In this document: one piece after another, positions 24,735 through 41,964 of the stretch
Layout of the letters: the number at the start of each line of letters is the position of its first letter
Position numbering within the stretch: position 1 is the first letter of the stretch
Assembly (NCBI GenBank): GCA_045641205.1
Contig: JAZUGM010000392.1
Location: 2,577-66,576, forward strand
Direction of reading: 5' to 3'
From: Thermoguttaceae bacterium
GTDB taxonomy: Bacteria; Planctomycetota; Planctomycetia; Pirellulales; Thermoguttaceae
Length of the DNA stretch: 64,000 nucleotides
Program-made: the position numbers and the translations under genes
Notes under the pieces: model-generated
Databases searched by the model: none
The model's input: the letters and a program-made list of their open reading frames with translations, nothing else
Told to the model about the DNA's origin: nothing

Positions 24735-24762
24735 TTGAATATTCTAAAAAGTTAGATATTAT
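24735..24762 (+). promoter_or_regulatory. sigma70-like promoter candidate for the XRE gene
   Basis: TTGAAT-16 nt-TATTAT immediately upstream of the four tandem repeats. Confidence 0.3.
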
Positions 24763-24771
24763 ATAAAGATG

Positions 24772-24868: not shown

Positions 24869-24909
24869 GTTACGAGGAAATAATCAAACCAAAAGAGGGA
24901 AGGCATAAA

Positions 24910-25278: not shown

Positions 25279-25302
25279 AGAAACATCAACAAGACGCCAA
25301 AA

Positions 25303-25500
25303 TCAACGAGCCGCCAAAACACGCTCCAACGCGCGGAAATCTTCACGTTGCAGACGAGCGCAGGCGTTATGAGCCGATTCGTTAGGATCATATTGATCGA
25401 AATCTGGCTCGGCTTGTCGGTTCGTCCCGCATAAACTCGTTTGAACGGAGGTCGACGCGCGTTTGGTCGTATTATCAAAGGTGGAAATAGTCGAGGTCAT
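25303..25500 (-). CDS. small hypothetical protein (65 aa), convergent with the XRE gene
   Basis: ATG 25500 preceded by AGGAGAAAGAG; MTSTISTFDNTTKRASTSVQTSLCG...REDFRALERVLAAR. No family recognised. Confidence 0.3.
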   Translation of the reverse strand: MTSTISTFDNTTKRASTSVQTSLCGTNRQAEPDFDQYDPNESAHNACARLQREDFRALERVLAAR

Positions 25501-25616
25501 TATTCTCTTTCTCCTATGCAAAGCGCGCGACGAAAAGGACGACGCGCGGCAATTTGACTCCGAAAATCGGTAGTCGTAAGTATACGATATTTTCGGCGCG
25601 CCGCTCGCCCTTTTTT

Positions 25617-25646
25617 GAAAAAAACGCCGACTCCTCGGCGTTTTTC
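25617..25646. terminator. bidirectional hairpin terminator-like element
   Basis: aaaaaaacgccga-ctcc-tcggcgttttt: 8-bp stem with an A-run on one side and a T-run on the other. Confidence 0.45.
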
Positions 25647-26004
25647 AGAAACTTCAAACGCGTTAATCGCGTTATCTAAACGATCTGTTTTTTCCGATAA
25701 GTTCCCGTCGTTCATTACGATCGACAGACCGTTCGTTTCTATCTGCGTATGTCTTAGCGTTTTATTCTGTTTTGCCTATATCCTATACTTTACCCGTTTT
25801 ATCCCAAAAGGAAATATCCAATTGACGCATACAAAAGGAAATTCCTTTACCATTACCGTTTATATCCCCCTCTTGCGCGAATGAGTTCCGACGCGTGAAA
25901 CAGTTGTGCCGTACGATTTCATTATAACGATTCAAAACGCCTTAACAAGCCTCGAAGCTCAGTAAACTTTTGGGTATTGTTTGACGTCGAGATTGCATCG
26001 TCTT

Positions 26005-26901
26005 TCAATTCTTGTCAAAAAGTCGCAAAATTTTTTCACGGCAAGACGGTCTGTTCCAAGAGCGCCAATGTTCTTTCCATCCTTCGATAATTTCTTCGTC
26101 GGGCGGAACCAATTTCGATGCGAAAAGTCGTTTCGTTTCTCGAAGCGATTCGAAATCGCGATCCTTGAGAAAAAGTTCCGAAACATTCCGAATTTTTGCC
26201 AATTCGTCGGACGTTTCTTCCACGTCGTCGATCACGTCGACGATTCCAAGAGCGGTCCTAGCAAATTCGGCGTCGACGCGTTTGCACGTCAAGACGACCT
26301 CGCGCAATTTGGAAATTGGACACCTACGGCTAAGAAACGGGAAAAGCAACGTCGGATAAAAACCAAAGGAAACTTCGGAAAACCAGAGTCGAAACGTTCT
26401 TGATGCGGAAACGTAATCGCAAGCGGTCAAAAGACCGGCGCCGCCCCCGCAAGCGATTCCTCGCGCGCGTCCGACGACGATTTGGGGCAAAAGCTGAATA
26501 CGCTTCATTATTTCCTGAACGATACGCGGCATTATTCGTCCCCGTTCGATTCGCTCGCCGGGTAAAAGAGAAACGCCCAACGCGTCTAAATCGAGAAAAG
26601 CCAATTCCTCGTAAGAAATCGGGGCGCCGTCGGACGCTTCGCGTAAATCAAGACCCGCGCAAAAATTTGCGCCTTCGCCGGTCAAGACGACGATGCGAAT
26701 CGTATCGCTTTGTTCAACGCGTCGCAATTCGAGCGACAACGCTTTCAACGTTTCAAAAGAAAGGGCGTTCAATTTCTCGGGCCGAGCTAGCGTTATCGTC
26801 TCGACGCCCCGTTCGTCAGTCGTACAATAGAGGTTGGCGCTGTGAAAATCGTCAAAATCGCGCATTGACGCTACGCTCCTGTGTTCGTTATAATCGCACA
26901 A
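26005..26901 (-). CDS. enoyl-CoA hydratase/isomerase (crotonase) family protein
   Basis: ITLARPEKLNALSFETLKAL...VVLTGEGANFCAGLDL and ..GIACGGGAGLLTACDY are crotonase oxyanion-hole blocks. TTG start directly after the recombinase stop. Confidence 0.85.
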   Translation of the reverse strand: MCDYNEHRSVASMRDFDDFHSANLYCTTDERGVETITLARPEKLNALSFETLKALSLELRRVEQSDTIRIVVLTGEGANFCAGLDLREASDGAPISYEELAFLDLDALGVSLLPGERIERGRIMPRIVQEIMKRIQLLPQIVVGRARGIACGGGAGLLTACDYVSASRTFRLWFSEVSFGFYPTLLFPFLSRRCPISKLREVVLTCKRVDAEFARTALGIVDVIDDVEETSDELAKIRNVSELFLKDRDFESLRETKRLFASKLVPPDEEIIEGWKEHWRSWNRPSCREKILRLFDKN

Positions 26902-26902
26902 G

Positions 26903-28084
26903 TCAATTCAGACGTTCGACGACGGCAAGTCGCGCGCGAGGATGCGCTTTTTCATAAACGGCGTGCAAAGTCGACGTCGAAACGTGCGCGTATATTTGGG
27001 TCGTGACGACGTTTTTATGACCGAGAAGCTCCTGAATCGAACGAACGTCGGCGCCGGAGTCGAGCAAATGCGTCGCAAAAGAATGGCGCAACGTATGGGG
27101 AGAAACGCGCGAGTCGAGGTTCGTTTGACGCAAATAACCGTCAAGTTTGCGCCCGACGCTCCGAACGTTGAGCGCGCCGCCGTTTTTGTTGAGAAAGACG
27201 GGCTCTTCCAAAAATTCTTCCCATCGACGTCGCGCGTTCGGATCGTTCAACTCTTCGGGCGCGGCAGGCGCAAAACTGGTTTCCCCTCGAAAAATTCCGA
27301 TTTTTTCGAGCGCCGAATCGTCGCTCGATTCGCCAGAATTCTCGAGAACGTCGCGAACGTTGGGAAAGAACGTCGCGACAAAACGACGCGTTTCTCGACA
27401 CGGAGCCGCTATTTCCGCAAAACGCGCTCTGTCGCGTCTTTTGACGACCAAAGAAGATTCGCGCAGGTATTCGCGCGCAAAAAGCAAATATTTTAACAGG
27501 GCGGCGCGCGCGTAAGCGCCAATAAACGCAAAACGTTCCCGCTTGCCCTTCCCTCTAATTTTAAGCAGTTCTTCGTCAAGTAACAAATCGGAAAAGAGAA
27601 GTCCGACGCACTCGCTTACGCGCAACCCGCCCGAATAGAGAATCTCGAGAATCGCGCGATCACGGAGCCCAAGAGGGTCGCAAGGATTCGGCGCGTTCAA
27701 TAATTTGTCGACGTCTTCGGTCGAGAGTACGAGAGGCAACGGTCGACGTCCTCGCGGATTCCGCAAAGCGCGCGCCGGGTTGTCTTGCGCCCACCCCTCT
27801 CGCTCGCCAAATTTAAAAAAACCGCGCAACGAAGCAAGACGACGCGAGATAGTCGCCTTCGAATACGACGCTTCGTTCATTGCAAGAACGTAACCGCGCA
27901 ACTCCGGCGGCGTCGTCGCCCAAGGAAGCGCGCTTTGTCCGTTATGAACCAGCGACTCGTATTCCAACCACGCTTCAAGATCTTCGCCGTAACTCTTGAT
28001 CGTATGTTCGGAATAATTTCGTTCGACTCTAAGATAACGTAAAAACCGCTCGAATAATTCGCGCCATATTTTGTCGTTGTTCAT
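26903..28084 (-). CDS. tyrosine site-specific recombinase, XerC/XerD-like, with a ~85-aa insertion
   Basis: N-terminal SAM-like domain (FLRYLRVERNYSEHTIKSYGEDL). The catalytic domain has RDRAILEILYSGGLRVSECVGL, HTLRHSFATHLL and LGHKNVVTTQIYAHV (R..H-x-x-R..H..Y). 393 aa, versus about 300 for a typical Xer. Confidence 0.85.
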   Translation of the reverse strand: MNNDKIWRELFERFLRYLRVERNYSEHTIKSYGEDLEAWLEYESLVHNGQSALPWATTPPELRGYVLAMNEASYSKATISRRLASLRGFFKFGEREGWAQDNPARALRNPRGRRPLPLVLSTEDVDKLLNAPNPCDPLGLRDRAILEILYSGGLRVSECVGLLFSDLLLDEELLKIRGKGKRERFAFIGAYARAALLKYLLFAREYLRESSLVVKRRDRARFAEIAAPCRETRRFVATFFPNVRDVLENSGESSDDSALEKIGIFRGETSFAPAAPEELNDPNARRRWEEFLEEPVFLNKNGGALNVRSVGRKLDGYLRQTNLDSRVSPHTLRHSFATHLLDSGADVRSIQELLGHKNVVTTQIYAHVSTSTLHAVYEKAHPRARLAVVERLN

Positions 28085-28951: not shown

Positions 28952-29818
28952 ATGGAAAAAAAAGCTCCCGTAGAAAAAATAAGCGACGCAAAAAAACAAC
29001 GCGTTTCCTTCCGTATGTTGATGATTGGCGACGTAATGGGCAAGGCTGGGCGAGATATCCTCGTCCAACGAATCGCCGCTATTAAAGACAAATTCGACGT
29101 CGATTTCGTCGTCGTCAACGCGGAAAACGCCGCCGGAGGCGCAGGATTGACCCCGGAAATTTTCAACGCGATTATTCGCGCCGGAGTCGACTGCGTCACG
29201 CTTGGCGACCACGCATACGATCAAAAGTCGCTGTACCCTGTGTTAAATTCGAACGAAACGCGTCTAGTGCGACCGATTAATTTGCCGCCGGACGCGCCCG
29301 GAAAAGGCTGGACCGTCATAGAAGCGCCGGCAAAAGAAGGACGCCCCGCGCTACGCGTCGCCGTCGTCGCGGCGCTCGGACGCGTCTTTATGCGCGAAAT
29401 GGGCGACAATCCGCTCGTCGCGCTCGACAAAGTCCTAGAAAAAATAGCCGACGTTCAAATTCGTCTCTTAGATTTCCACGCCGAAGCGACAAGCGAAACG
29501 CAAACGATAGGTCGGTATCTCGACGGTAAGTTTTCCGCCGTCTTGGGTACGCATACGCACGTTCCCACTGCCGACGAAGAAATCTTTCCGAACGGCACGG
29601 CGTTTCAATGCGACGTCGGAATGACGGGCTCGTTTGAAAGCATCATTGGACGAAGATTAGACGTCGTTTTTGAAAATATGAAGACGTGCAAGCGAACAAC
29701 CTTCGAAGTCGCCTCAAAAGACGCTCGACTTTGCGGCACGCTAGTCGACGTCGACGCCGTTTCGGGAAAAGCGACCGCGATTCGTCGTCTCGTCGTCAAA
29801 GAAAACGACGAACTATAG
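28952..29818 (+). CDS. YmdB-family metallophosphoesterase (TIGR00282-type 2',3'-cyclic-nucleotide phosphodiesterase)
   Basis: MLMIGDVMGKAGR.., VVVNAENAAGGAGLT, VTLGDHAYD, LDFHAEATSE, LGTHTHVPTADE and CDVGMTG are the YmdB metal-binding blocks. The start could instead be at the internal Met near 29015. Confidence 0.85.
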   Translation: MEKKAPVEKISDAKKQRVSFRMLMIGDVMGKAGRDILVQRIAAIKDKFDVDFVVVNAENAAGGAGLTPEIFNAIIRAGVDCVTLGDHAYDQKSLYPVLNSNETRLVRPINLPPDAPGKGWTVIEAPAKEGRPALRVAVVAALGRVFMREMGDNPLVALDKVLEKIADVQIRLLDFHAEATSETQTIGRYLDGKFSAVLGTHTHVPTADEEIFPNGTAFQCDVGMTGSFESIIGRRLDVVFENMKTCKRTTFEVASKDARLCGTLVDVDAVSGKATAIRRLVVKENDEL

Positions 29819-30424
29819 ACGTTCGTCTCGTCTTTTTTTCGTCCTTTTAGCGCGAAAGAACGCGCGCAACAATTCCGCGCAATCCTCGCGTAAAACGCCT
29901 TCGACGACTTCACAACGCCAGTTGAGTCGCGGATCGCTAAGAGCCGCGTAGAGCGAAACGACCGCGCCTCCTTTAGGATCGCGAGCGCCGAAAACCGTTC
30001 TGTTTACGCGAGATTGAACAAGAGCGCCGGCGCACATCATACAAGGTTCAAGAGTAACAAAAAGTTCCGAATCCTCGATACGCCAAGAAGGATAAAAGAG
30101 GGAGGCTTGGCGTAAAACAAGCGTTTCCGCATGCGCGGTCGGATCGCAAAGACGCTCGCGACGATTGTGATCGCGCGCGATTATGTAATTCTGGCAAACA
30201 AGAACCGCCCCGATCGGAACTTCGCCCTCTTCGGCGGCAAGTTCCGCCTCGACGAGCGCGCGTCGCATAAAAAAATTGTCGCGGTCGCCGTCCCTGACCG
30301 TCCAACGTTCGAGCGCGACGTCGCGCGAAAAGGGCGCGCGTTGCGAGTCGACCCAACAAGAAGCGTTAACGCCGTCCCTTGCGACGGACGGCAAATGGTT
30401 TGCAAACGTCAAAGAATCGTTCAT
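29813..30424 (-). CDS. tadA: tRNA adenosine(34) deaminase
   Basis: FFMRRALVEAELAAEEGEVPIGAVLV.., HAETLVL and TLEPCMMCAGAL (H-A-E ... P-C-x-x-C zinc site). Start placed at ATG 30424 rather than TTG 30442. Confidence 0.85.
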   Translation of the reverse strand: MNDSLTFANHLPSVARDGVNASCWVDSQRAPFSRDVALERWTVRDGDRDNFFMRRALVEAELAAEEGEVPIGAVLVCQNYIIARDHNRRERLCDPTAHAETLVLRQASLFYPSWRIEDSELFVTLEPCMMCAGALVQSRVNRTVFGARDPKGGAVVSLYAALSDPRLNWRCEVVEGVLREDCAELLRAFFRAKRTKKRRDERL

Positions 30425-30442
30425 ATCGGCGCGCGACGTCAA

Positions 30443-30880
30443 TTAATACGCCTCGCTAGAATCGTCGTTTAACGCAAACCCTGAAACGTTCGAAGATTCG
30501 GCGGTCGCATTGAAAGACGCCTGACGTGCGACGTAACGAGAATCGGAATCGATCGCGGTGGGAATTTGCGTCGCCGTTTGCGACGAAGCAAGTTGAGTCG
30601 ATTCCATTACGCTGGAAGAGACGGCGGAGCCGCCAAACTCGCTTGCCGAGTAGTATTCGACGCTTCCGCCGCCGCAGGACTCGCAATAGCCGTTCGCGTT
30701 GGAAGAACGATCCATACCGCCAAGAATCGACCCGCAACGATACAATTCGCCCATACACTGATCGCCGCGCTCGGGCAAAAAGGTCGGCTGACAACAATCG
30801 TAAGGCGCCAAACAAGCGCGACAACCGACGAAACCAACGGCAAACGCCATTACTACTGCCATTACGATTCTACGCGTCAT
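30443..30880 (-). CDS. small secreted / lipoprotein-like Cys-containing hypothetical protein
   Basis: ATG 30880 with ACGGAG upstream; MTRRIVMAVVMAFAVGFVGC looks like a signal with a lipobox. Followed by a Cys-rich segment and a Ser/Thr-rich tail. Stop abuts the tadA start region. Confidence 0.5.
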   Translation of the reverse strand: MTRRIVMAVVMAFAVGFVGCRACLAPYDCCQPTFLPERGDQCMGELYRCGSILGGMDRSSNANGYCESCGGGSVEYYSASEFGGSAVSSSVMESTQLASSQTATQIPTAIDSDSRYVARQASFNATAESSNVSGFALNDDSSEAY

Positions 30881-31205
30881 TGCAAACGCTCCGTTTCTCT
30901 TTTGATTCTTACGCTTCAAATGATTCTCTGACGCTCTTCGCGCGTCGCTCTATATCCTATTGTCGGCAAATTTTTCAGAATATTTAGAAAAATCAGAAAA
31001 TTTTAACATTTTCATTAAAAACGTTCTCACGTTTGAACGCGAGCAGATTCTAAAAAGAGAAAAACAATGGCGCGATCGACAAGAGCTTAATGCCTTTCGA
31101 CGCCGTTTAACTTGCGCGTTTCGGTAATAATTAGAATAAACCTTTCCAACGCTCTATCTTTTTTGACAGATTAAAAAAAATATTCTTAAGAAATATAAAA
31201 AAAAC

Positions 31206-31235
31206 TTGACCGAAAGCCCTTTATGATGTTACAAT
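31206..31235 (+). promoter_or_regulatory. sigma70-like promoter candidate for the pilMN-like operon
   Basis: TTGACC-18 nt-TACAAT after a long A/T tract. Would give a ~200-nt leader before ATG 31440. Confidence 0.4.
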
Positions 31236-31439
31236 AGAGGGGGAGCGCTATAGGCGTTTGACGTCAAAGCGCGCTAGGGAGTCGCAAAAGGCGCGCTTTA
31301 GCGTCGGTCGCGTTGAAAACGTTTTGGAAACGGAGACGTCGGAGCGGTCGGCGCGTTTGCCTAGGAAACTCGCCGGAATGCGATATGGTTCGCGGACCTT
31401 TGTCGGCGCAACGAAAGTTAAGCACGGGACAAATCGATT

Positions 31440-34400
31440 ATGGCTAAAAATGAAACCGTATGGGGCGTCGACGTAGGCAATACGTCGTTGAAGGCGATAC
31501 GTTGTCGAAAAGGCGCTGATCCGGGAAGTTTAGAAGTTCTAAACTTTGACTATATTGAGCATAGTAAAATTTTGTCGCAGCCGGGCGCCGACGCCGACGA
31601 AATTTTTGCGGAAACGCTCAAGTTGTTTCTGTCGCGTAACAATATCAAAGGCGAAAAGGTCGCGATTTCCGTTTCCGGGCAAAACGCCTTATGGCGTTAC
31701 CAGCCGTTGCCGCCGATCGATCCGAAAAAAGTGCCCGAATTAATCAAATATGAAGTCAAACAATGGCTTCCCTTCGACTTACAAGACGTGATCTGGGACT
31801 ATCGTCAAGTCGGAGGAACGATCGAGGGCGGAATCGCGCTCGACCTCTTCATCTTTATGTACGCGATGAAACGCGAGACGGCCAAGCGAACCTTGGAACG
31901 TTACGCCGCGTCGAACGTCGACGTCGATTGCGTTCAAGGGGCGCAAGTCGCGTTGTACAATTCGTTCGTTCACGATATGTACGACTACGAAGCCTTGCTC
32001 GAACGCGACATTAATGAGCTAAACGATTTCGACGTTATTTTAAACGTAGGAACGGACGCGACGGAAATTGTCGTTACGAACGGCGTCGCCGTATGGTTGC
32101 GCAACATACCCGTCGGCGGTAATCTCTTCACGAAGGCGTTGACAAAATCGCTCAAATTAACCTTCTCTAACGCGGAACACATCAAACGCAACGCCGGCGC
32201 GGCTCAAGATCCTAAAGCCGTTATTTTGGCGATGAAACCCGTCTTCAACGATATGTTGACGGAAATCGACCGTTCCATCAAATATTATTGCAGTCTCAAT
32301 AAAAAGGCGAAGATTCGTCGTATTTACGCGCTTGGCAACGCGATGAAATTGCCCGGTCTGCGCCAATTCTTGTCGAAGAGTTTAGGATTAGACGTCGTCG
32401 TTCCAACTTCCTTTGCCAAATTACGCGGCGAAGAGACGCTTTCTAACAATCTTTTCAAAGACAACGCGTCCGCGTTTGGCGTCGCCTACGGGCTTGCGCT
32501 CCAGCTCTTAGGCGAAGCGCCGTTGAGTATCAACTTAGTTCCGCGCGACATAGTTCAGCAACGTCTCATAGAACAAAACAAGCCGTGGGCGCTTGCCGCC
32601 GCTTCGATTTTGGGGCTTGGACTGACCGTTCAATACCTTTCGACAACGTCCACTTATAACGTCGTGCAAAATCCCGCCTTGGATTCCGCGCAAAAACAAG
32701 CGGAATCCGTCGCGTCTAAATCGAAAGACCTTATTGCAAAAGCGACTGCCGCAGTTACCGAATTTAAGAAATTCGACGATATCGGTTCGAATTTGACAAG
32801 CGGAGTCGAAGGACGTCTCACGTGGATGGAATTGCTTAAGGCGATTAATTCAGTCATTCCTGCTGAAGCGCCAAATAAAGCGATTCTTGAGGACGGCGTG
32901 TCCCCAATGAAGGTTCGCGAGATCAAAAAACAGAACCGAATTTATATTAACAATATTGAAGTCCAAGAAGTCGAAGACCTGAGCGAATGGTTTGAATTGG
33001 TTCGACGTTGGTACTATATCGACGACCTTGAAGCTCAAGCGTTCGCGACGGACGCCGAAGGAAATCCGCTCGAAGCGCCTGCTGACGCGACCGCAAACGC
33101 GACCGATGAAACAAAGTCGACTCCGGCGACGGCTGAGAGCGACGCCGCTTCCGACGCCGCGTCTGATTCTGATTCCGCTACAAACGACGCTTCTGACGCC
33201 GCTTCCGATGCGTCCTCGACGGATCAAAAGTCTTCTTCCACGTCGGGAAATTCTTCTAGTTCTTCCAGCGCGTCCGAGTCGGGCGAATATGTCCCCAAAT
33301 ACACGTTGGAGCAAATGTTCCCCTTCGTTCCCGCCGCTGAAACTAAGGGCGGATCCGGCTCGAGTAGTTCTAGTTCGTCAAAATCAAGTTCCTCGAGTTC
33401 TTCTTCGAAGTCCTCAAGTTCCTCCTCTTCGAAATCCTCAAGTTCGAGTTCCAAGTCCTCGTCTAGTTCTTCATCGTCTAGTTCTTCTTCGAAGGGCGGT
33501 TCCGATTTGGCGGCGTTCGACGAATTTACCGAAGGCGACGACAAGCGACTTGCCGAGATTCCCGGTCCTTCCGGCGCCGGTCGAATAGTTCAGTTGACCG
33601 GCTACCATTACCACAACCCGGACGACGTCAACGATCCTTCCAGAGGCGCCGAATATATTCGTCGTACTATTCTCTATAATCTCAAGCACGGCGAAATCGA
33701 TTTGCCCATCAGTTTAGAGCGACAACGCGCGGGCGAAACCGGCGTCGACCATCTCACGCTCAAAGAAATGGGAATTTACTTCCCCGTTATGGTCGATCCG
33801 AAAGTTATCGACGAACGTTTTAGACTCCTCGACCCGGAAGCGGCTGCTGAAGCTCGTAAAGAACTCTTAAAGTCGATGATCAAAACGCAACCGGGAAAGG
33901 CAGGCGGGGTCAATCGTCAAAACGGAGGAATGATGGGCGCGGGCGGCGTCGGCGGAACCGGCGGAGGCATGGGCGCGGGAATGACTTCCGGTATGGGGTC
34001 GGGTATGTCGGGCGGAATGTCGGGCGGAATGTCGGGCGGCGCCTCAAGAGGCGGTATGGGCGGCGGTATGAGTTCTATGAACAACCAAATCGCCAACCAA
34101 CTTAGCGACGACCAAGTTTTGAATTTAGCTCGTTACGATTTTACCATTCAATTCGTGTGGATGGAAACGCCTCCAAGCGATCGCGACGCGCGACGTAAAG
34201 CCGCCGAAGAGGAAGCCGCGAAAGCGTCCGAATCTTCAGAGGCAGGCGCCGACGGTTCCGCGAATACGACCGAACCCGCGACAACGGACGACGACGCAAA
34301 CGAGACTGCGTTGGGCGAAGACGCCAATGTAGCGGAAACGACCGCACCGGCTGATGACGCCAACGCGACGGAAGCGACCGACTCGACCGAAGACGCCAAC

Positions 34401-34460
34401 GCGAATGCGACGACCAACGACGCCAATGCGACGGAGTCTGCGGAGCCCGCCGCGCCGTAA
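31440..34460 (+). CDS. PilM-PilN fusion protein (GspL-like architecture) with Ser/Lys linker, Gly/Met tract and acidic tail (protein A)
   Basis: The first 360 aa have the actin/FtsA-like PilM fold (VWGVDVGNTSLKAIRC, ILNVGTDATEIVVTNG, IPVGGNLFTKAL, IYALGNAMKLPGLRQFL). The PilN signature SINLVPRD (32529-32543) and the TM helix PWALAAASILGLGLTV follow. The remaining ~600 aa are extracytoplasmic and include low-complexity tracts. Confidence 0.8.
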   Translation: MAKNETVWGVDVGNTSLKAIRCRKGADPGSLEVLNFDYIEHSKILSQPGADADEIFAETLKLFLSRNNIKGEKVAISVSGQNALWRYQPLPPIDPKKVPELIKYEVKQWLPFDLQDVIWDYRQVGGTIEGGIALDLFIFMYAMKRETAKRTLERYAASNVDVDCVQGAQVALYNSFVHDMYDYEALLERDINELNDFDVILNVGTDATEIVVTNGVAVWLRNIPVGGNLFTKALTKSLKLTFSNAEHIKRNAGAAQDPKAVILAMKPVFNDMLTEIDRSIKYYCSLNKKAKIRRIYALGNAMKLPGLRQFLSKSLGLDVVVPTSFAKLRGEETLSNNLFKDNASAFGVAYGLALQLLGEAPLSINLVPRDIVQQRLIEQNKPWALAAASILGLGLTVQYLSTTSTYNVVQNPALDSAQKQAESVASKSKDLIAKATAAVTEFKKFDDIGSNLTSGVEGRLTWMELLKAINSVIPAEAPNKAILEDGVSPMKVREIKKQNRIYINNIEVQEVEDLSEWFELVRRWYYIDDLEAQAFATDAEGNPLEAPADATANATDETKSTPATAESDAASDAASDSDSATNDASDAASDASSTDQKSSSTSGNSSSSSSASESGEYVPKYTLEQMFPFVPAAETKGGSGSSSSSSSKSSSSSSSSKSSSSSSSKSSSSSSKSSSSSSSSSSSSKGGSDLAAFDEFTEGDDKRLAEIPGPSGAGRIVQLTGYHYHNPDDVNDPSRGAEYIRRTILYNLKHGEIDLPISLERQRAGETGVDHLTLKEMGIYFPVMVDPKVIDERFRLLDPEAAAEARKELLKSMIKTQPGKAGGVNRQNGGMMGAGGVGGTGGGMGAGMTSGMGSGMSGGMSGGMSGGASRGGMGGGMSSMNNQIANQLSDDQVLNLARYDFTIQFVWMETPPSDRDARRKAAEEEAAKASESSEAGADGSANTTEPATTDDDANETALGEDANVAETTAPADDANATEATDSTEDANANATTNDANATESAEPAAP
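33354..33494 (+). repeat. Ser/Lys low-complexity coding tract
   Basis: SGSSSSSSSKSSSSSSSSKSSSSSSSKSSSSSSKSSSSSSSSSSSSK, encoded by mixed Ser codons (agt/tct/tcg/tcc/tca). Confidence 0.9.
33921..34079 (+). repeat. Gly/Met-rich low-complexity tract (A1)
   Basis: NGGMMGAGGVGGTGGGMGAGMTSGMGSGMSGGMSGGMSGGASRGGMGGGMSSM. Confidence 0.9.
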
Positions 34461-34784
34461 GCGTTTCGCGTGCGGCAGATTTAGTCGCGTCTTGAGCCGC
34501 GTCGTCGTACGCTTGAATTTAACGTATGGCTAAAATGGATGATAAAGCGCGCGTCGAAACGTCGCGCGCAACCGTATAAAACGTTCGTAAGAGCGTTTCC
34601 CTTTGTTCGACTTCCGATAGAACAATCCTCGTCGTTTCGGAATTGAAGCGTCGAGACCGTTTGAAACAGTTCGATTTAGTTCGGATTTTTTCCTACCGTT
34701 TTCCGCAAAGTTCCGAGCGGTTCCCTAGTCGACTCGTAGCAAGCGCCGCGCGCGCGTCGTCGTTGGGATATAAAGGTGAAAAGA

Positions 34785-37370
34785 ATGGCAAAAGCTAAAG
34801 GCAGTTTTAAGCCGGAAGATCTGAAAAGATATTATTTTTGGATCGTCCTACCGTTGATTCTTATACTTACGTTCGTCTTTTTCTTTCTCGCGAAAGGAAA
34901 GATCAAGAAGGCTTACGTTGAAAAGACGAGCGCCATTACGGCGGCCAAAGGCGAAGTCGACACGATCGCCGGCAATAAGAAACATCCAAACGACAATACT
35001 ATCAAAGCGATCAAAGCGGAAACTGCCGTGTTGGCAAACAGCGTGTACGGCGCTTGGGAACTGATGTACGGCGATCAAAAGTTGCGAAACCGTTGGCCTC
35101 GTCAGTTGTCGAACGAATTTCTTGACTTAGTCGAAAACAAATTGAAGTTTCGCGATCCGATCGGCGTCGGCAACCCGCATATGCTCGAAGACTACGGACT
35201 CTTCATTGCAAATCACCTTCCCGATCTGCTGAAGGAGATGAATCGTCGTCGCGTTCAAGTTCGCGAATACAAGTTGCTCAAGAAGAAGGAAATGAGTCAA
35301 CTTGGAATCACTGGTATGGAAGAACAATTCTGGCCGGTGTACGTCTATCAGGACGACAAAGGCGTTCAGCATCTGTATCTTGCGATCTACGCGAATCCTA
35401 AGGATGAAAAATCTGCCGTTAAAAGCGTATATCAATACGAAATCGATCTGACCAATCCCAATAATTCGTTGGTTACGAATTTTGACGACAGCGCTTTACG
35501 CGACAAATTGATAGCGAAAGAGCCGGAGCCGTATTACAGAGAAGTCGATCCTTGGATTATGGATCCGAAATCGATGATTATGTTCGGTATGGAATCGAAC
35601 GATATGCAGGGAATTATGCAAGCGATCAACGGAACCGAAGGCGGCGCGGGCGCGATGGGCGGTTCAATGGGCGGTTCAATGGGCGGCGCGATGGGCGGTT
35701 CCGGCGGCGCGCGCGGTTCGATGGGCGGCTCAAGCGCCGAAGGTATGAGCGGCGGAATGGGCGGAGGTATGGGAATGGGAATTTCTTCCATTCCCGGCGA
35801 CGGTTACGATCCTGCGGAAGACCAAATTTCCGGCTCCGATCTTGAAGCTCTTGCAGGAGGCGGAATGACCGGCGGCGTCGGCGGAGGTCGTATGGGCGGC
35901 GGAGCAACCGGTAGCGGAATGACCGGAGGTATGGGCGGCGGCTCGCGCGGCGGCGCTATGTCCGGCGGTATGGGCGGTTCGCGTGGCGGAGCTATGTCCG
36001 GAGGTATGGGCGGCTCGCGCGGCGGAATGTCCGGCGGTATGGGCGGGGATTCGATGGGTATGGGCGGTTCCACCAACATTGAAGACCCGAGTTGGTCGGT
36101 CAAGAAGTACCCTGGACTTCCTCCCTATAAGGAGCGTCGACGCGTCGTTGGAAACGTCGATTGGATCGATCCCGAAATTTACGCGTTGCCGACTTGGGAT
36201 TCCCAAGCCAATCCGACTTCTATTGAAGTTTGGTACGCGCAAGAAACTTTGTGGGTTTTCGAAGCCTTGATTCGCGTTGTTGCCGAGACTAATAGGGACT
36301 ACGTAGACAATCTCGCAAAAGCGCCCGTGAAATGCGTCGAACAGATGCTTATCGGGCAAGACGCGGCCGTTGAATTTACTACTTTGACGCAAACTATCGG
36401 CGATTTAACGGGTAAGTCGGCGACTGCAAACGCTATGGGATCAGATTCCTCAATGTCGTCTTCAATGGGCTCGGGTTCGGGTTCAGGTTCGGGGTCTGGC
36501 TCCGGCGGTATGATGGGCGGCGAAATGGGACTTGCGTTGACGGGTTCGGCGGAAATGCAAGCGGGTACGAAAATTCTCTTCGGTCGATATATCGGAGAAG
36601 ACAATAAGCCTTTAAAATCTGACGACAAGCCGCCTTTTGCTGAATTTAACAAGATGCCGGTCTGTTTGAAGGTCGTTATCGACCAACGACGTATTCCAGA
36701 TTTACTTGTCAGTTGCGCCAACTGTTCAATGCCGATCGACGTCAAACACATTCGTATTTGCCCGGACAACAACGTGCCTTTCGTGATGCCGATTCCTTTG
36801 GAAAATATGGCTTCCGACGCTAGCGGCGGTATGGGCGGCGCAATGATGGGCGGCGGTATGATGGGCGGCTCAATGATGGGCGGCGGAATGGGCGGAGGCA
36901 TGGGCGGTTCCGGTTCCGGGGAAAACGGAAACGCACGCGGAGCTATGGGCGCCGATTCGATGGGAATGGGCGGCGGCGTCGAAATTGGACGTTCCGAATT
37001 AGGTCAATCCGAGTACGGAGTCGACGCCATTCGCGTCGAAATATACGGCGTAATCAACATCTTTAACGAACCGAACAAAGAGAACTTTGCGACGGGTTCT
37101 TCCGCAGAAGAAGCGGACGCCGAGTCGCAAGCCATTCTTTCCGGGGTCGGCGCGACGGACGCCGCCGCCGATTCAGAAAACGCGCCTGCGGCAGACGATC
37201 AAAGCGCCGCGCCTGCGACGAACGATCAAAACGCCGCGCCTGCGGCAGACGATCAAAGCGCCGCGCCTGCGACAAACGATCAAAACGCCGCGCCTGCGGC
37301 AAACGATCAAAACGCCGCGCCTGCGGTAGACGATCAAAACGCCGCGCCTGCGGCACACGACGCGGCTTGA
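34785..37370 (+). CDS. large single-pass membrane protein with four Gly/Met tracts and a C-terminal 9-aa tandem repeat (protein B)
   Basis: ATG 34785 (AAGGTG 6 nt upstream; GTG 34776 also possible). MAKAKGSFKPEDLKRYYFWIVLPLILILTFVFFFLA is a basic N-terminus plus one TM helix. 861 aa, no family recognised. Confidence 0.8.
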   Translation: MAKAKGSFKPEDLKRYYFWIVLPLILILTFVFFFLAKGKIKKAYVEKTSAITAAKGEVDTIAGNKKHPNDNTIKAIKAETAVLANSVYGAWELMYGDQKLRNRWPRQLSNEFLDLVENKLKFRDPIGVGNPHMLEDYGLFIANHLPDLLKEMNRRRVQVREYKLLKKKEMSQLGITGMEEQFWPVYVYQDDKGVQHLYLAIYANPKDEKSAVKSVYQYEIDLTNPNNSLVTNFDDSALRDKLIAKEPEPYYREVDPWIMDPKSMIMFGMESNDMQGIMQAINGTEGGAGAMGGSMGGSMGGAMGGSGGARGSMGGSSAEGMSGGMGGGMGMGISSIPGDGYDPAEDQISGSDLEALAGGGMTGGVGGGRMGGGATGSGMTGGMGGGSRGGAMSGGMGGSRGGAMSGGMGGSRGGMSGGMGGDSMGMGGSTNIEDPSWSVKKYPGLPPYKERRRVVGNVDWIDPEIYALPTWDSQANPTSIEVWYAQETLWVFEALIRVVAETNRDYVDNLAKAPVKCVEQMLIGQDAAVEFTTLTQTIGDLTGKSATANAMGSDSSMSSSMGSGSGSGSGSGSGGMMGGEMGLALTGSAEMQAGTKILFGRYIGEDNKPLKSDDKPPFAEFNKMPVCLKVVIDQRRIPDLLVSCANCSMPIDVKHIRICPDNNVPFVMPIPLENMASDASGGMGGAMMGGGMMGGSMMGGGMGGGMGGSGSGENGNARGAMGADSMGMGGGVEIGRSELGQSEYGVDAIRVEIYGVINIFNEPNKENFATGSSAEEADAESQAILSGVGATDAAADSENAPAADDQSAAPATNDQNAAPAADDQSAAPATNDQNAAPAANDQNAAPAVDDQNAAPAAHDAA
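35640..35780 (+). repeat. Gly/Met-rich tract (B1)
   Basis: GGAGAMGGSMGGSMGGAMGGSGGARGSMGGSSAEGMSGGMGGGMGMG. Confidence 0.9.
35856..36071 (+). repeat. Gly/Met-rich tract (B2) with a thrice-repeated GGSRGG(A)MSGGMGG unit
   Basis: GGGMTGGVGGGRMGGGATGSGMTGGMGGGSRGGAMSGGMGGSRGGAMSGGMGGSRGGMSGGMGGDSMGMGGS. The DNA units differ by synonymous changes. Confidence 0.9.
36435..36530 (+). repeat. Ser/Gly/Met tract (B3)
   Basis: MGSDSSMSSSMGSGSGSGSGSGSGGMMGGEMG. Confidence 0.9.
36822..36977 (+). repeat. Gly/Met-rich tract (B4)
   Basis: SGGMGGAMMGGGMMGGSMMGGGMGGGMGGSGSGENGNARGAMGADSMGMGGG. Confidence 0.9.
37182..37367 (+). repeat. 27-bp in-frame tandem repeat, ~6.9 copies (APA[A/T][D/N]DQ[S/N]A)
   Basis: gcgcctgcgNNNNNNgatcaaaRcgcc units. 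Units 1-2 are repeated exactly as units 3-4 (54-bp higher-order repeat). Forms the C-terminus of protein B. Confidence 0.9.
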
Positions 37371-37469
37371 CGCGCCGAGACGTTCCGCGAACGTTTCGCA
37401 ATATTCGAAACGTTCGCTATCGACTGTTCGAAATAGTTTAAGAAGCAAATAAGAGCAATAGAGGACGCC

Positions 37470-39503
37470 ATGTGCGCGAAAGCTAAAGAAGATAAAGAAG
37501 CCAAAGCCGCGAAGAAAGCAGCGGCAAAGGAAGAAAAAGCCGCGAAAGCTAAAGCAAAAGCGAAGCCGAAGAAAAAAGCCTCGACGGGAACGGAAGACTA
37601 TAATTTCTTTCTTTTACACGGGGAAAAGATCGGTATTGCCGTCGCGCTGTTAGTTTTTGCGGGACTCGTCGCTTCCGGTAGCGGATTGGATAAATTTACG
37701 TTGACCCCGGAACAGATTAATAGTTCGTCGAGTTCAGCCGAGACGACGATTAAAGACAGCAAGGTTACGCCAAAAGAATACGACGAAGGTGTCGTCGTCT
37801 ATCCTTTTGATTCTTATGCCGAGCTTATTAAGAGCAACGTTAAAGTCAATTCTTATGAAACTGCGACTCGTTGGGAACAATCGTTGTTTCCAGATAAGAT
37901 CAAACGTCCGAACGTCGTTCCGCTCCCGCTTGAAAATTTACGCGCCGTCGCTTGCGTTGGCGCTATTATGTACAACGCGATTTCCGCGAACGGCGCCGCT
38001 AACGCCGGAGGAGGAATGGGCGGCGGTATGGGCGCCGGAGGAGCCGGAGCAGGCGGCATGGGCGGTGGTATGACGGGCGGTATGGGAGGCGCGTCCGGCG
38101 AATTAAAGGGACGCCACTGGATTACCCTTACGGGTTCGATTCCGATTCGCAAACAGCAACTTGCATACAACGAACTGTTTGGCAACGCTCAATATACGGA
38201 TGATCAACGCGACCAGCCTCGTTATATTTACTTTACGTTGGAACGCGGTATAGTTGATCCGACGGGCAAAACCGATTGGAAAAAGGTCGACGTTATCGGC
38301 GCGATTCAAAAAGAGAATCAATACTGGTCGGGGGTTGGTTCCGACCAAGTTGGTTATAACTATATGGCGCCCACGTGGTCTTCTTTCCCGCCGATGGCGA
38401 TGAGCTGTCCGCCGATGGCAAACAAGCCTTTCGGCGAGGAAGTCGCCAACTTGCCCAATATTCCTTTGAGTTCAACCGAACAGATCGACGTGCAAGCGTC
38501 CGACGTCAAGGAATGGAACGAACTGCAAGAAGCGATGAAAAAGTTCGACGAGTCCGATCTTCTCAGTCGCAATCCGTTTGCGGACGTCTCTATGGGCGGC
38601 GGAGCGGGTATGGCGGGAGGTATGTCCGGCGGAATGGGCATGGCTGGCGGAATGGGTATGGTTGGCGGCGGTATGATGGGCTCTGGAATGGAAACCGGCG
38701 GCGGAATGGGTATGTCGGGCGGCGCGACCGGCGGCGCGGTCGGAGGAAATTCCTGGCTTGTCAATCAAGACGCTATCAACGAGTCTCGTATGAAGATTCA
38801 ACAAGCGGCTTCCGTCGATTACTATCTTTTCCGATATTTTGACTTTGAAGTCGAACCAGACAAAACGTACGTTTATCGCGTTAAATTGATATTGGGCAAT
38901 CCGAACTACGGAGTTGACGAACATTTTGTCGAAGATCCGTCGACTTTGGACAAAACGTTCGTCGAGTCTGAATTCAGCGCGCCGTCCAATCCGGTTGCGT
39001 TGGGAGCGATTTCTCGCGTTCTGGCGGAAAACGTCGAAGCTTCTTCCAGACCGGGAGCGGAACCTCGTATTACGCTTTCTTCCGTCTATTTTGACGAAGA
39101 AGACGCGTCCGAATCGATTATTCAAGGTCAAAACCTCAAACGCGGACAAGTCGCCAACTTCTACAGCCAAAAGCACGACGCCGTGTCCGTTGCCGGAGGA
39201 CGATCTTCCGCTTCGATGTACGACGCTATGGGTATGGGATCGGCAGGTTCCAAGAAAGGCGGCAAACCTAAGAACAAGTCGGTCAATCATATTTCGAACG
39301 TATGCGTCGTCGACGCCTTAGGCGGAGCTAAGATATCCGGCGTTACGTTGCGCTCGCCCGGCAAGGTGTTGTTCCTCGAACCGAACGGACTACTCCAAAT
39401 TCGTGAAGTTAAAGAAGACGCAAGAGAGTTGGGACGTTACGACAATTCCGCCGGAGCTATGGGAATGGGAATGGGAACGGGCGCCGCAGGAATGATGATG
39501 TAG
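37470..39503 (+). CDS. large single-pass membrane protein with Lys/Ala-rich cytoplasmic head and three Gly/Met tracts (protein C)
   Basis: GAGGA 5 nt upstream of the ATG. MCAKAKEDKEAKAAKKAAAKEEKAAKAKAKAKPKKK is followed by the TM helix IGIAVALLVFAGLVASG. 677 aa ending in ..GAMGMGMGTGAAGMMM. No family recognised. Confidence 0.8.
   Translation: MCAKAKEDKEAKAAKKAAAKEEKAAKAKAKAKPKKKASTGTEDYNFFLLHGEKIGIAVALLVFAGLVASGSGLDKFTLTPEQINSSSSSAETTIKDSKVTPKEYDEGVVVYPFDSYAELIKSNVKVNSYETATRWEQSLFPDKIKRPNVVPLPLENLRAVACVGAIMYNAISANGAANAGGGMGGGMGAGGAGAGGMGGGMTGGMGGASGELKGRHWITLTGSIPIRKQQLAYNELFGNAQYTDDQRDQPRYIYFTLERGIVDPTGKTDWKKVDVIGAIQKENQYWSGVGSDQVGYNYMAPTWSSFPPMAMSCPPMANKPFGEEVANLPNIPLSSTEQIDVQASDVKEWNELQEAMKKFDESDLLSRNPFADVSMGGGAGMAGGMSGGMGMAGGMGMVGGGMMGSGMETGGGMGMSGGATGGAVGGNSWLVNQDAINESRMKIQQAASVDYYLFRYFDFEVEPDKTYVYRVKLILGNPNYGVDEHFVEDPSTLDKTFVESEFSAPSNPVALGAISRVLAENVEASSRPGAEPRITLSSVYFDEEDASESIIQGQNLKRGQVANFYSQKHDAVSVAGGRSSASMYDAMGMGSAGSKKGGKPKNKSVNHISNVCVVDALGGAKISGVTLRSPGKVLFLEPNGLLQIREVKEDARELGRYDNSAGAMGMGMGTGAAGMMM
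38001..38099 (+). repeat. Gly/Met-rich tract (C1)
   Basis: NAGGGMGGGMGAGGAGAGGMGGGMTGGMGGASG. Confidence 0.9.
38589..38747 (+). repeat. Gly/Met-rich tract (C2)
   Basis: SMGGGAGMAGGMSGGMGMAGGMGMVGGGMMGSGMETGGGMGMSGGATGGAVGG (12 Met in 53 residues). Confidence 0.9.
39450..39500 (+). repeat. Gly/Met-rich C-terminal tail (C3)
   Basis: AGAMGMGMGTGAAGMMM followed directly by the stop codon; formally like the (GGM)n-M tail of GroEL. Confidence 0.9.
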
Positions 39504-39597
39504 CGCGTTTCTCCCTCGTAGTAATTTAGTAGTAATTTACTCGAAAGCCCTGCCGCAAAGCGCGTCGGGGTTTTTGTTTATCGATTGATAAAGCAAA

Positions 39598-40161
39598 ATG
39601 AATCGTATTGATGATTTGGGCGCGTCAATTTTTCAAGGGCGTGCAAACCGTATAGAAACGGAACGTCTGATAATAGCGCCTCTAACGCGCGAAGAATCCG
39701 AACTCTATTTAACCGACGTCGACGCCTTTGCGCGCGCGTTACGTTTGGCAAAAGCGCCAGACGAGCCGGACGAAGGAACAAAACGCGCTTTGAACTGGTT
39801 AATCGATCAAAGTTTACAGTATGATAAGAACTCAAGCGTTTGGACGGCGATTTGGGCGTTTATTGACAAACGAGAAAACGTCGTCGTTGGAAACGCCTGT
39901 TTTAAAGGGGCGCCAATCAACGGCGATGCGGAAATCGGATACGGAACAGAACGCCAATTTCAAAATCGCGGGTATATGACCGAAGGCGTGAGAGGTCTCG
40001 TCTCTTGGGGGCGTCAACGAAACGATTTACGTGGAATCGTCGCCGAGACGCTCAAAGACAACATCCCTTCCCAACGCGTCTTAGAAAGCGCCGGATTCGT
40101 CCAATTAGGAGACGGCAAAAACGAAAAAGACGCCTTCTTTTGGCGCGTCGACGTCAAATAA
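39598..40161 (+). CDS. GNAT family N-acetyltransferase (RimJ/RimL-like)
   Basis: ERLIIAPLT.., VVGNACFKG..AEIGYGTERQFQNRGYMTEGVRGLVSWG.., NIPSQRVLESAGFVQLG. Confidence 0.8.
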   Translation: MNRIDDLGASIFQGRANRIETERLIIAPLTREESELYLTDVDAFARALRLAKAPDEPDEGTKRALNWLIDQSLQYDKNSSVWTAIWAFIDKRENVVVGNACFKGAPINGDAEIGYGTERQFQNRGYMTEGVRGLVSWGRQRNDLRGIVAETLKDNIPSQRVLESAGFVQLGDGKNEKDAFFWRVDVK

Positions 40162-40317: not shown

Positions 40318-41964
40318 GTGGCGTCTCAATTAACGCAATCCAAGGCTTGGAAAGATCTTGAAGCGCATCAAAAAGAAACGGCAAATTTGTCGATGCGCGA
40401 AATGTTCGCCAACGATCCAGAACGGTTCAAGAAATTCTCGCTTGAATTCGGCGGTTTGTTGTATGATTTCTCCAAAAATCGCATCACTGAAAAAACGCTC
40501 GATCTCTTAATCGCGCTGGCGGAACAAGCGCAAATCAAAGAAAAAGCGGAAATGATGTTCAGTGGTGAAAAGATCAACGTTACCGAACGTCGCGCCGTCT
40601 TGCATACCGCGTTGCGCAATCGTTGCAACGCGCCGGTTTACGTAGATGGAAAAGACGTTATGCCCGACGTAAACCGCGTCTTGGCAAAAATGAAAGATTT
40701 CAGCGAACGCGTTCGAAGCGGCGAATGGAAAGGCTATACGGGCAAAGCGATCACGGACGTCGTAAACGTCGGCATCGGCGGTTCCGATCTTGGACCCTGT
40801 ATGGTTTGCGAAGTTCTGACGCCTTATCAAACGAACGTAACGCCCCATTTTATTTCTAACGTCGACGGAACCCACGCCGTAGAAATTCTCAAAAAGCTGA
40901 ATCCCGAAACGACGCTCTTCATTATCGCCTCTAAGACTTTCACGACGCAAGAGACGATGACGAACGCGGAAACGGCGAAAAAATGGCTTTTGGAAAAGGC
41001 AAAAGACGAAACGGCGGTCGCCAAACATTTTGTCGCGCTTTCCACCAATCGCGAAGCGGTTGAAAAGTTCGGAATCGACCCGGAAAATATGTTTGAATTC
41101 TGGAGCTGGGTCGGCGGTCGTTATTCGCTCTGGTCCGCGATCGGCTTAAGTATCGCGCTCGCCGTCGGATTCGACAATTTTGAAGAACTTCTCACGGGCG
41201 CGCATGAAGTCGACGAATATTTCCGCGCGACGCCCTATCGTCAAAACATTCCCGTAATTATGGCGTTGCTCGGCGTCTGGTACAATAATTTCTGGAACGC
41301 CGAAACGCAAGCGATTTTGCCTTACGACCAATATATGCGTCGTTTTCCCGCTTTCTTGCAACAAGGCGATATGGAAAGCAACGGCAAGGGCGTCGACCGC
41401 GAAAATCGACGAGTCGATTATTCCACCGGTCAAATCGTCTGGGGCGAGCCGGGTACGAACGGACAACACGCCTTCTATCAGTTGATTCACCAAGGCACGA
41501 AGTTGATCCCCTGCGATTTCCTTGCGCCCGCGCAAACGCAGAACCCCATCGGCGACCATCACTACAAATTGATCGCCAACTTTATCGCGCAAACTGAAGC
41601 GTTGATGAAGGGTAAGACGGAAGAAGAAGCCTTCGCCGAACTAGTTAAATCTGGTTTGGACGAAGCCGAAGCGCGACGTCTCGCCCCGTCCAAAGTCTTT
41701 ACGGGCAATCGTCCGACAAGCACGTTCTTCTTCGACAAACTCACTCCGAAAATGTTGGGAAGTCTGATCGCGTTATACGAAATGAAAATCTTCGTCCAAG
41801 GTATGATCTGGAACGTCAATTCCTTTGATCAAATGGGCGTCGAACTGGGCAAGCAACTCGCGAAAGCCGTTTTGCCTGAACTGACGTCAAGCGAACCGTC
41901 GACGAAACACGACGCTTCTACCAACGCGCTCATCGAGTTCTTCAAAGCAAAGAACGCAAAGTAA
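40318..41964 (+). CDS. pgi: glucose-6-phosphate isomerase
   Basis: GTG start with AAGAGGAG upstream. 548 aa with [39 protein letters not shown] and [15 protein letters not shown] blocks. Confidence 0.95.

Follow-up and report, generated by a model that had tools for sequence, protein, structure and literature searches.

A predicted PilM-PilN fusion protein and two membrane-anchored partners as a probable alignment subcomplex of a type IV filament machine in Planctomycetota

INTRODUCTION

In canonical type IVa pilus (T4aP) systems, such as those of Pseudomonas aeruginosa, Myxococcus xanthus, and Thermus, PilM and PilN are separate proteins that belong with PilO, PilP, and the secretin PilQ, and PilM binds an INLLP peptide at the N terminus of PilN. 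The pilMNOPQ genes usually lie apart from the pilB, pilT, and pilC loci. In type II secretion systems (T2SS), the functional equivalent of PilM plus PilN is GspL, one polypeptide that comprises a cytoplasmic actin-like domain, a single transmembrane (TM) helix, and a periplasmic ferredoxin-like domain. Here, we analyze a 64,000-nucleotide (nt) stretch of DNA from a Thermoguttaceae bacterium of the phylum Planctomycetota (contig JAZUGM010000392.1 of assembly GCA_045641205.1, positions 2,577 to 66,576; hereafter, the window), which contains three co-directional genes called A, B, and C. Judged by its sequence, A encodes a natural PilM-PilN fusion protein, and the products of the triad probably form the inner-membrane alignment subcomplex, of the PilMNOP type, of a type IV filament machine like that of other members of the Planctomycetota-Verrucomicrobia-Chlamydiae (PVC) superphylum.

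Several described systems bear on these genes. In Akkermansia, which like Planctomycetota belongs to the PVC superphylum, Amuc_1098 (PilQ), Amuc_1099, Amuc_1100, and Amuc_1101 (PilM-like) have been described as a cluster of type IV pili genes (PMC5332112, PMC10688800, PMC4960237). For a Gemmataceae genome, a complete set of type IV pilus genes has been reported (PMC7397252). In Rhodopirellula baltica (Pirellulales), RB2860, a possible counterpart of A by its pilM annotation, lies far from pilT, pilB, and pilC (RB12773, RB12774, and RB12781), yet salt stress induced all of these genes together (PMC2754498). Helicobacter pylori has kept a PilM/N/O operon (HP0273 region) in a genome that has no other pilus genes, and the operon is proposed to have a non-pilus role in the modulation of chemotaxis and motility (bioRxiv 10.1101/2023.04.27.537399). 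Boedeker et al. described crateriform structures as press-stud-like connections between outer and cytoplasmic membranes with pili-like fibres (PMC5394234). Among the papers that we searched, none described the planctomycete triad or a natural PilM-PilN fusion.

RESULTS

Gene A joins a PilM domain to a PilN-like segment

The layout of the A protein is given in Table 1. Pfam PilM_2 (PF11104) matched its cytoplasmic domain with an E value of 3.9e-28 (98.8 bits, cutoff 27). In comparisons with solved structures, the single A sequence matched M. xanthus PilM (3jc8) at 1.2e-26, and a profile did so at 9.7e-40; the Thermus and P. aeruginosa PilM structures were matched as well, with values for all solved PilM from 1e-26 to 1e-12. 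The best NCBIfam match was Amuc_1101_fam (“PilM-like pilus complex protein”; 182 bits, equivalog cutoff 650), which covers amino acids (aa) 36 to 475 and thus runs through the TM helix into the periplasmic part. The TIGR01175 pilM model gave 119.7 bits for A, under its cutoff of 133, and 144.5 bits, over the cutoff, for the homologue at locus L084. The motifs VWGVDVGNTSLKAI, ILNVGTDATEIVV, IPVGGNLFT, and SINLVPRD are all present in A. Residues D11, G13, G204, T205, G226, G227, and G299 are invariant across 17 homologues; from knowledge of the actin-fold family, we take them to be the phosphate-1 (DxG), phosphate-2 (GT), and adenosine (GG) motifs, so that the nucleotide-binding motifs of PilM appear to be retained.

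The PilM domain is followed by INLVP, a variant of the INLLP-type motif at the N terminus of PilN, whose N365, L366, and P368 are invariant in the 17 homologues, and then, within about 15 residues, by a single TM helix, as is typical of PilN. The hydropathy of this helix is moderate (under the Kyte-Doolittle threshold of 1.6), and K381, P382, W383, and A386 at its start are invariant. The junction can be compared with that of 5EOU, an engineered fusion of P. aeruginosa PilM to residues 1 to 12 of PilN. The alignment crosses the junction (“...GLALRSFDSSGMARINLLP” in A versus “...GLALQLLGEAPLSINLVP” in 5EOU), with a linker of equal length and INLVP in place of INLLP. Because it passes through the artificial junction, A is best described, from its sequence, as a natural PilM-PilN fusion, which bears out the preliminary description of this DNA, where a PilM fold had been seen to run directly into a PilN signature and a TM helix. 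By analogy with 5EOU, it would be geometrically feasible for a single chain to bind its own motif in cis. While 5EOU is a laboratory construct with 12 PilN residues only, A is full-length and has relatives in many genomes (see below). When the fragment comprising residues 380 to 545 was compared with NCBIfam only, the sole match was again Amuc_1101_fam (E = 0.0011).

PilM shares the actin-like fold with FtsA, and from this kinship, a non-pilus role of the triad had been considered conceivable. In such a scenario, A would be an FtsA-like division or envelope-remodelling protein that makes up for missing FtsZ, while novel divisome or crateriform scaffold proteins, with no relation to a filament machine, would be encoded by B and C. 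The shared fold is reflected in a co-match of A to the generic actin-fold segment PF14450 (FtsA) at 1.7e-9, and ftsK lies near the triad at one related locus (L001). However, A scored only 29.4 bits against TIGR01174 ftsA (cutoff 175.85), far less than A and its homologue scored against pilM; INLVP is a motif that only PilN partners carry; and a secretin gene recurs next to the triad, while ftsK does not. The ftsK gene was dropped as a division link for this lack of recurrence. The kinship of A to FtsA is thus weak, and we regard a division role as very improbable.

The triad is widespread in Planctomycetota and often precedes a secretin gene

A word-indexed search for relatives of A yielded 1433 matches, mainly proteins of 700 to 950 aa labelled “pilus assembly protein PilM” in metagenome-assembled genomes (MAGs) of Thermoguttaceae and Planctomycetaceae. 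A relative of A is encoded in at least 585 GTDB species genomes, and all 80 of the 80 loci among the matches listed belong to Planctomycetota. The nearest genome locus (L004, 99% identity) is from a gut Thermoguttaceae MAG. In every locus with enough DNA, the B and C profiles matched the two open reading frames (ORFs) directly downstream of A, in the same order. The triad is thus conserved well beyond the genome in which it was noticed.

To find recurrent neighbours, flanking ORFs of 83 loci were clustered, and several spurious wrong-frame clusters in GC-rich loci were discarded. One recurrent gene, located directly downstream of C, was identified by Pfam as a secretin gene (PF00263; E = 3e-23), with products as long as 1642 aa. 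Of 48 loci in which C is followed by 2.5 kb of DNA or more, 22 have such an ORF, which starts ~190 to 2,500 nt, mostly a few hundred, past C. Many Pirellulales have the secretin gene in this place. The same arrangement can be seen on two independently annotated metagenome contigs, where PilM_2 (756 aa) is followed by proteins of 492/504 and 738/753 aa and by a secretin of 1344/1413 aa. The neighbouring secretins, 1300 to 1650 aa long, scored best against TIGR02515 PilQ (1e-22), with GspD close behind, and also matched Amuc_1098_fam (56 bits, cutoff 750). The preliminary description had conceded that constant co-occurrence with a canonical pilus locus would reduce the triad to a divergent PilMNOP alignment complex; a PilQ-type secretin directly after C in nearly half of the informative loci largely amounts to such co-occurrence, and the orphan, non-pilus role is not supported.

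Gene order in the relatives, with a third protein before the secretin gene, equals the M-N-O-P-Q order of T4aP operons, from which it differs in that one polypeptide replaces PilM and PilN. It also equals the order of neighbours from Amuc_1101 to Amuc_1098 in Akkermansia (PilM-like protein, PilO-fold protein, third protein, and secretin). The Akkermansia cluster differs in several respects: planctomycete scores are far under the equivalog cutoffs of the Amuc_1101, Amuc_1100, and Amuc_1098 families, Amuc_1102 has no counterpart upstream of the triad, low-complexity inserts make the planctomycete proteins two to three times longer, and the secretin gene is not adjacent in the window.

Gene B probably encodes a PilO/Amuc_1100-like protein

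The ATG taken as the start of B gives a protein of 861 aa; an alternative GTG at 34776 gives 864 aa. AlphaFold models of B and C were built from alignments of 37 and 52 sequences, respectively, and contain folded parts with pLDDT of 80 to 94 separated by disordered stretches. In B, a short N terminus is followed by one TM helix, a long helix, and an alpha/beta core, a topology that fits the PilO/Amuc_1100 pattern, although structural scores are weak. Most of the invariant residues of the family (W460, N503, and R601) are located in the second alpha/beta domain.

When the whole B model was compared with the Protein Data Bank (PDB) by Foldseek, M. xanthus PilO (3jc8_Oa) ranked first with a probability of 0.91, the aligned part of B not being specified. 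The top 50 also included ten Amuc_1100 chains, seven of them with a root mean square deviation (rmsd) of 3 to 5 Å over ~150 columns, and P. aeruginosa PilO twice. Among 54 B homologues, five matched Amuc_1100_fam (NF038287), the commonest of the three NCBIfam families matched in a scan of 18,950 models; the best of these matches had an E value of 8e-6 (25.5 bits versus a cutoff of 180) and covered N-terminal positions 22 to 100. B itself matched no Pfam or NCBIfam family, and a profile search of B against PDB sequences returned noise only. Overall, these results lend moderate support to the assignment of B as a PilO/Amuc_1100-like protein. B and C had been described as single-pass proteins without an assignable family; each indeed has one strongly hydrophobic segment and no family match. 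It had also been allowed that they might turn out to be ordinary PilO and PilP folds with decorative linkers, and the B model largely points this way: PilO and Amuc_1100 head its list of structural matches, though with weak scores, and disordered low-complexity insert accounts for the additional length.

Gene C encodes a bitopic protein with a beta-sandwich

The AlphaFold model of C consists of an alpha/beta domain and a beta-sandwich. The latter bears YYLFRYFDFEVEPDKTYVYRV, the most conserved motif of the C family, in which R455, D458, Y467, and Y469 are invariant in 46 homologues. Foldseek matched the C model to Fab, immunoglobulin (Ig), and fibronectin type III (FN3)-like folds only, none significantly (all E > 0.1). 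A profile search of C against PDB sequences gave noise only; nothing was found for C when seven domain fragments were compared with NCBIfam; and hhalign of B against C produced an alignment confined to the TM region. The family is large: an exhaustive profile search with C collected 4143 representative clusters (50% identity), of which 1499 had an E value of 1e-30 or lower, while some of the weaker matches may reflect Gly/Met-rich composition. C therefore represents a large family without a domain definition.

PilP and GspC bind the N0 domain of the secretin through a beta-sandwich homology-region domain and are anchored as a lipoprotein (PilP) or by a TM helix (GspC). Like GspC, C is bitopic, with a TM anchor and a beta-sandwich. 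Its membrane anchor, fold class, and gene position before the secretin suggest that C may be an analogue of PilP or GspC. The likeness to Amuc_1099 is one of position alone.

Low-complexity inserts account for the protein sizes

The share of low-complexity or disordered sequence is 30% in A, 41% in B, and 29% in C. Gly/Met-rich segments (26 to 54% Gly and 13 to 33% Met) are located at residues 819 to 883 of A; 288 to 337, 349 to 438, 540 to 581, and 662 to 736 of B; and 172 to 208, 374 to 446, 577 to 599, and 660 to 677 of C. In the AlphaFold models, some inserts are interdomain linkers and others are loops within domains. Homologues without inserts are far shorter (410 to 500 aa for B and 540 to 600 aa for C). 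The “giant” size of the proteins is thus due to disordered inserts rich in Gly/Met, Ser, and Ala/Asp.

Gly/Met-rich segments were found in triad proteins of 39 of 82 loci. Of 1158 flanking ORFs of at least 200 aa, a single one contained such a segment (GGMGG-type, residues 1172 to 1203), and it encodes a secretin (L079:10729-15654:+). This distribution points to a composition common to components of the machine, including the L079 secretin.

In the window, positive GC skew (+0.09 to +0.125) was observed across B and C (34001 to 40000), compared to about −0.03 elsewhere. It is plausibly an effect of Gly (GGN) and Met codons in the inserts and not a replication signal.

Results that weigh against a PilMNOP-type assignment

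A number of results do not favour the assignment of the triad to a PilMNOP-type complex. Pfam and NCBIfam PilN models (PF05137) miss the periplasmic part of A at E ≤ 0.01; Pfam PilO (PF04350) matches neither B nor its 54 homologues; and C and its 46 homologues have no Pfam or NCBIfam match, Pfam PilP included. Every Foldseek match of B has E > 0.1 (0.28 to 3, with probabilities of 0.3 to 0.9). When A was aligned to B by hhalign, only the TM region aligned, and no paralogy of the PilN/PilO type was seen between the periplasmic part of A and B. Canonical PilP is a lipoprotein, whereas C is TM-anchored with an FN3/Ig-like sandwich. Large Gly/Met inserts further set the triad apart from T4aP components. 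The secretin gene is unlinked in the clade of the window organism: none adjoins the triad in the window, where C is followed by GNAT and pgi genes, or at the closest loci (15 within L001 to L025 that offer 2.5 kb of room or more). Secretin adjacency has thus been lost in this gut Thermoguttaceae clade. In the whole 64 kb, no secretin, PilB/PilT ATPase, PilC, prepilin peptidase, or pilin was found. In favour of the assignment, the folded parts of A, B, and C have dN/dS of 0.04 to 0.12 versus three gut-clade orthologues, values that are approximate since dS is saturated; they indicate that all three genes are under strong purifying selection in a clade without the adjacent secretin.

The absence of partners, which the preliminary description had correctly noted, was assessed in three ways. 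A Pfam scan of most ORFs of at least 150 aa judged non-overlapping detected no T2SSE/PilT, PilC, secretin, or A24 peptidase domain. A tblastn search of the window with four planctomycete secretins gave nothing at E ≤ 1. A six-frame regular-expression search revealed neither the prepilin motif G[FY]TL[IV]E nor a PilB/PilT Walker A motif. ORFs under 150 aa and five longer ORFs near the 3′ end, at 55880 to 56572, 56617 to 57501, 57538 to 58581, 61375 to 61893, and 62350 to 62985 were covered by the regular-expression and tblastn searches only.

One way to account for these observations is that the triad is a true orphan in gut Thermoguttaceae, where the other filament genes would have been lost and A, B, and C kept for another membrane function. 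Purifying selection implies that A, B, and C still serve a function, there is a precedent in the PilM/N/O operon of H. pylori (bioRxiv 10.1101/2023.04.27.537399), and both the window and the closest loci are without a neighbouring secretin. However, no PilB/PilT-like ATPase was found within 10 kb in any of the 84 loci (0/84), and pilMNOP(Q) genes are usually unlinked from pilBCD and pilT; because of this, the absence of partners from a single window says little. In H. pylori, the whole genome is without other type IV filament genes, whereas here, 64 kb was seen, and relatives tie the triad to a secretin. Outside this clade, the family is tightly linked to that gene, and within it, C, the presumed secretin-binding partner, is conserved as well as A and B. 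A true orphan therefore seems to us improbable.

Surroundings of the triad in the window

The triad is flanked by genes for a tadA-like deaminase (29813 to 30442, − strand), a GNAT protein (39598 to 40161), and pgi (40318 to 41964); Pfam and NCBIfam agree with the earlier identification of these housekeeping genes, and A, B, and C are confirmed as three ORFs on the + strand (Table 1). The consensus-like promoter reported upstream of A does exist as a site, but since seven promoter-like sites were seen in the region against 6.0 expected, it carries no statistical weight. Terminator-like signals in the region were not over chance, and no Rfam match was found between 30000 and 41000.

The gap between A and B (34461 to 34775, ~315 nt) is unusually long, while in relatives, these genes abut or overlap (in L001, A ends and B starts at 12715). 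Co-transcription of A and B is therefore not assured in the window organism. A single weak terminator-like hairpin is located in this gap at 34579 to 34598.

Divergent from A lies a gene (30443 to 30919, − strand) for a small Cys-rich protein with a lipoprotein-like signal (MTRRIVMAVVMAFAVGFVGCRAC...) and no Pfam match; its homologues are found upstream of the triad in 11 loci (representative L011:3729-4388:-, gut clade). At 32 related loci, a protein of 860 to 1050 aa with weak GH57/GH38-N similarity is encoded divergently just upstream of the PilM-fusion gene (e.g., L040:6086-9244:-, L003:6806-9691:-, and L084:69-2663:-); tblastn found no homologue in the window.

Farther away, the window encodes a type IIL restriction-modification enzyme of the MmeI family (12801 to 15587, + strand), which is complete, the five MmeI domains all being present, and is followed by a YhcG/DUF1016 PDDEXK nuclease (15719 to 16807, + strand). 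A low-GC stretch (0.45 to 0.46 at 22 to 26 kb) contains a YhgA-like transposase (21785 to 23131), and a phage-integrase-family tyrosine recombinase (26903 to 28084, − strand) lies beyond its 3′ edge; the segment from 21785 to 28084 may be mobile or recently acquired. Two adjacent genes encode proteins of ~820 aa (53065 to 55512 and 50520 to 53015, both − strand), of which one has an HZS_alpha (hydrazine-synthase alpha middle) domain (E = 8.6e-24) and the other has no Pfam match and, by eye, a signal-peptide-like N terminus. There are no tRNA genes in the window.

Table 1. Positions in the window of the triad genes, the parts of their products, and the promoter candidate.
Feature	Position	Strand	Evidence
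Sigma-70-like promoter candidate, TTGACC-18-TACAAT	31206..31235	+	10/12 matches, TG extension, ~200 nt upstream of A
Gene A, PilM-PilN fusion protein (predicted), 1006 aa	31440..34460	+	ORF, Pfam/NCBIfam, PDB matches
A aa 9-355, cytoplasmic PilM actin-like ATPase-fold domain	31464..32504	+	Pfam PilM_2
A aa 364-368, INLVP, PilN N-terminal motif	32529..32543	+	8 residues past last PilM helix
A aa 382-400, predicted TM helix, PWALAAASILGLGLTVQYL	32583..32639	+	Read from sequence
A aa 401-545, predicted periplasmic PilN-like coiled coil and core start	32640..33074	+	Amuc_1101_fam match to aa 475
A aa 546-696, Ser/Ala/Asp-rich low-complexity insert	33075..33527	+	Ser up to 63%
A aa 697-818, conserved periplasmic segment VQLTGYHYHN...LPISLE	33528..33893	+	Kept across 16 full-length homologues
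A aa 819-883, Gly/Met-rich insert	33894..34088	+	G 45%, M 17%
A aa 884-912, conserved strand segment LARYDFTIQFVWMETPP	34089..34175	+	Consensus LRRFDFVIQFxWxETPPSxR
Gene B, bitopic protein, probably PilO/Amuc_1100-like, 861 aa, disordered insert 41%	34785..37370	+	ORF, AlphaFold, Foldseek
B aa 1-287, TM, long helices, and alpha/beta domain	34785..35645	+	AlphaFold pLDDT 75-92
B aa 17-36, TM helix	34833..34892	+	Hydropathy up to 2.8; within AlphaFold helix 10-62
B aa 288-438, Gly/Met/Ser-rich disordered linker	35646..36098	+	G 44%, M 13-18%, pLDDT 31-42
B aa 439-769, second discontinuous alpha/beta domain, split by Gly/Met inserts 540-581 and 662-736	36099..37091	+	AlphaFold
Gene C, bitopic protein in PilP/GspC position, 677 aa	37470..39503	+	ORF, AlphaFold
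C aa 46-68, TM helix after 45-aa Lys/Ala-rich cytoplasmic tail	37605..37673	+	Hydropathy, AlphaFold
C aa 447-659, beta-sandwich domain bearing YYLFRYFDFEVEPDKTYVYRV	38808..39446	+	AlphaFold strands 451-646, pLDDT 80-94

DISCUSSION

From our results, A, B, and C probably form, at the inner membrane, a PilMNOP-type alignment subcomplex that serves a type IV filament machine of the PVC type. As the counterpart of the PilM/PilN/PilO/PilP layer, the subcomplex would couple a cytoplasmic motor to an outer-membrane secretin. The PilM domain of A would form a ring that docks the motor (PilB/PilT with PilC), and, as suggested by 5EOU, its own INLVP segment may clamp this domain to the membrane in cis. 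The A chain would then cross the membrane and continue as a PilN-like periplasmic part. By the known biology of PilN and PilO, B, the PilO-like counterpart of Amuc_1100, would pair with this part, while C, judging from its position, may connect A and B with a giant PilQ-type secretin through the periplasmic N-terminal domains of the latter. The remaining genes of the machine (secretin, pilB, pilT, pilC, and pilins) are presumed to lie elsewhere in the genome of the window organism. The filament may be a surface pilus or a T2SS-like pseudopilus.

The last possibility corresponds to a T2SS-like apparatus in which A, B, and C would take the roles of GspL, GspM, and GspC, and a GspD-like secretin would export folded proteins such as planctomycete carbohydrate-active enzymes (CAZymes). 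The preliminary description had called the module GspL-like, and the likeness is an analogy of architecture only, A being fused as GspL is; the bitopic C with its beta-sandwich resembles GspC and not the lipoprotein PilP; and the secretins score nearly equally against TIGR02517 GspD (4e-20) and PilQ (6e-21). PilO and GspM share a fold, so that the Foldseek result for B does not discriminate between them. In contrast, A strongly matches PilM models and structures and keeps the PilN peptide motif, which GspL lacks; no GspL family is among its Pfam and NCBIfam matches at E ≤ 0.01. The closest named families are proteins of the Akkermansia type IV pilus cluster, and the R. baltica pilM is co-induced with pilT, whose product is a retraction ATPase typical of T4aP (PMC2754498). 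Taken together, we consider a T2SS-like apparatus unlikely, although less so than the other alternatives, and favour the alignment subcomplex of a type IV filament machine.

The triad does not represent a new kind of machine, and it probably looks like an orphan because of the way genes are arranged in a single clade. What is notable about it is the natural fusion, the Gly/Met-rich inserts specific to the machine, the giant secretin partner, and the two large unannotated families. A more speculative idea, which we hold to be quite doubtful, is that the PilM-PilN fusion, B, C, and the 1300- to 1650-aa secretin form the envelope-spanning core of crateriform structures, with the Gly/Met-rich inserts as a flexible or gel-like periplasmic mesh. 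If this were true, the complex could, by means of the mesh, cope with a periplasm that is enlarged and variable in planctomycetes, or gate transport across it.

With the assignment of the triad to a filament machine, two large families of unannotated proteins, B and C, would gain a role. Judged by sequence, a natural PilM-PilN fusion that mirrors the construct engineered by structural biologists is the rule in a major PVC lineage, and the planctomycete genes are tied to a cluster of medical interest, that of Amuc_1100 in Akkermansia. The same genes may thus be considered candidates for the fibres and crateriform structures of Planctomycetes.

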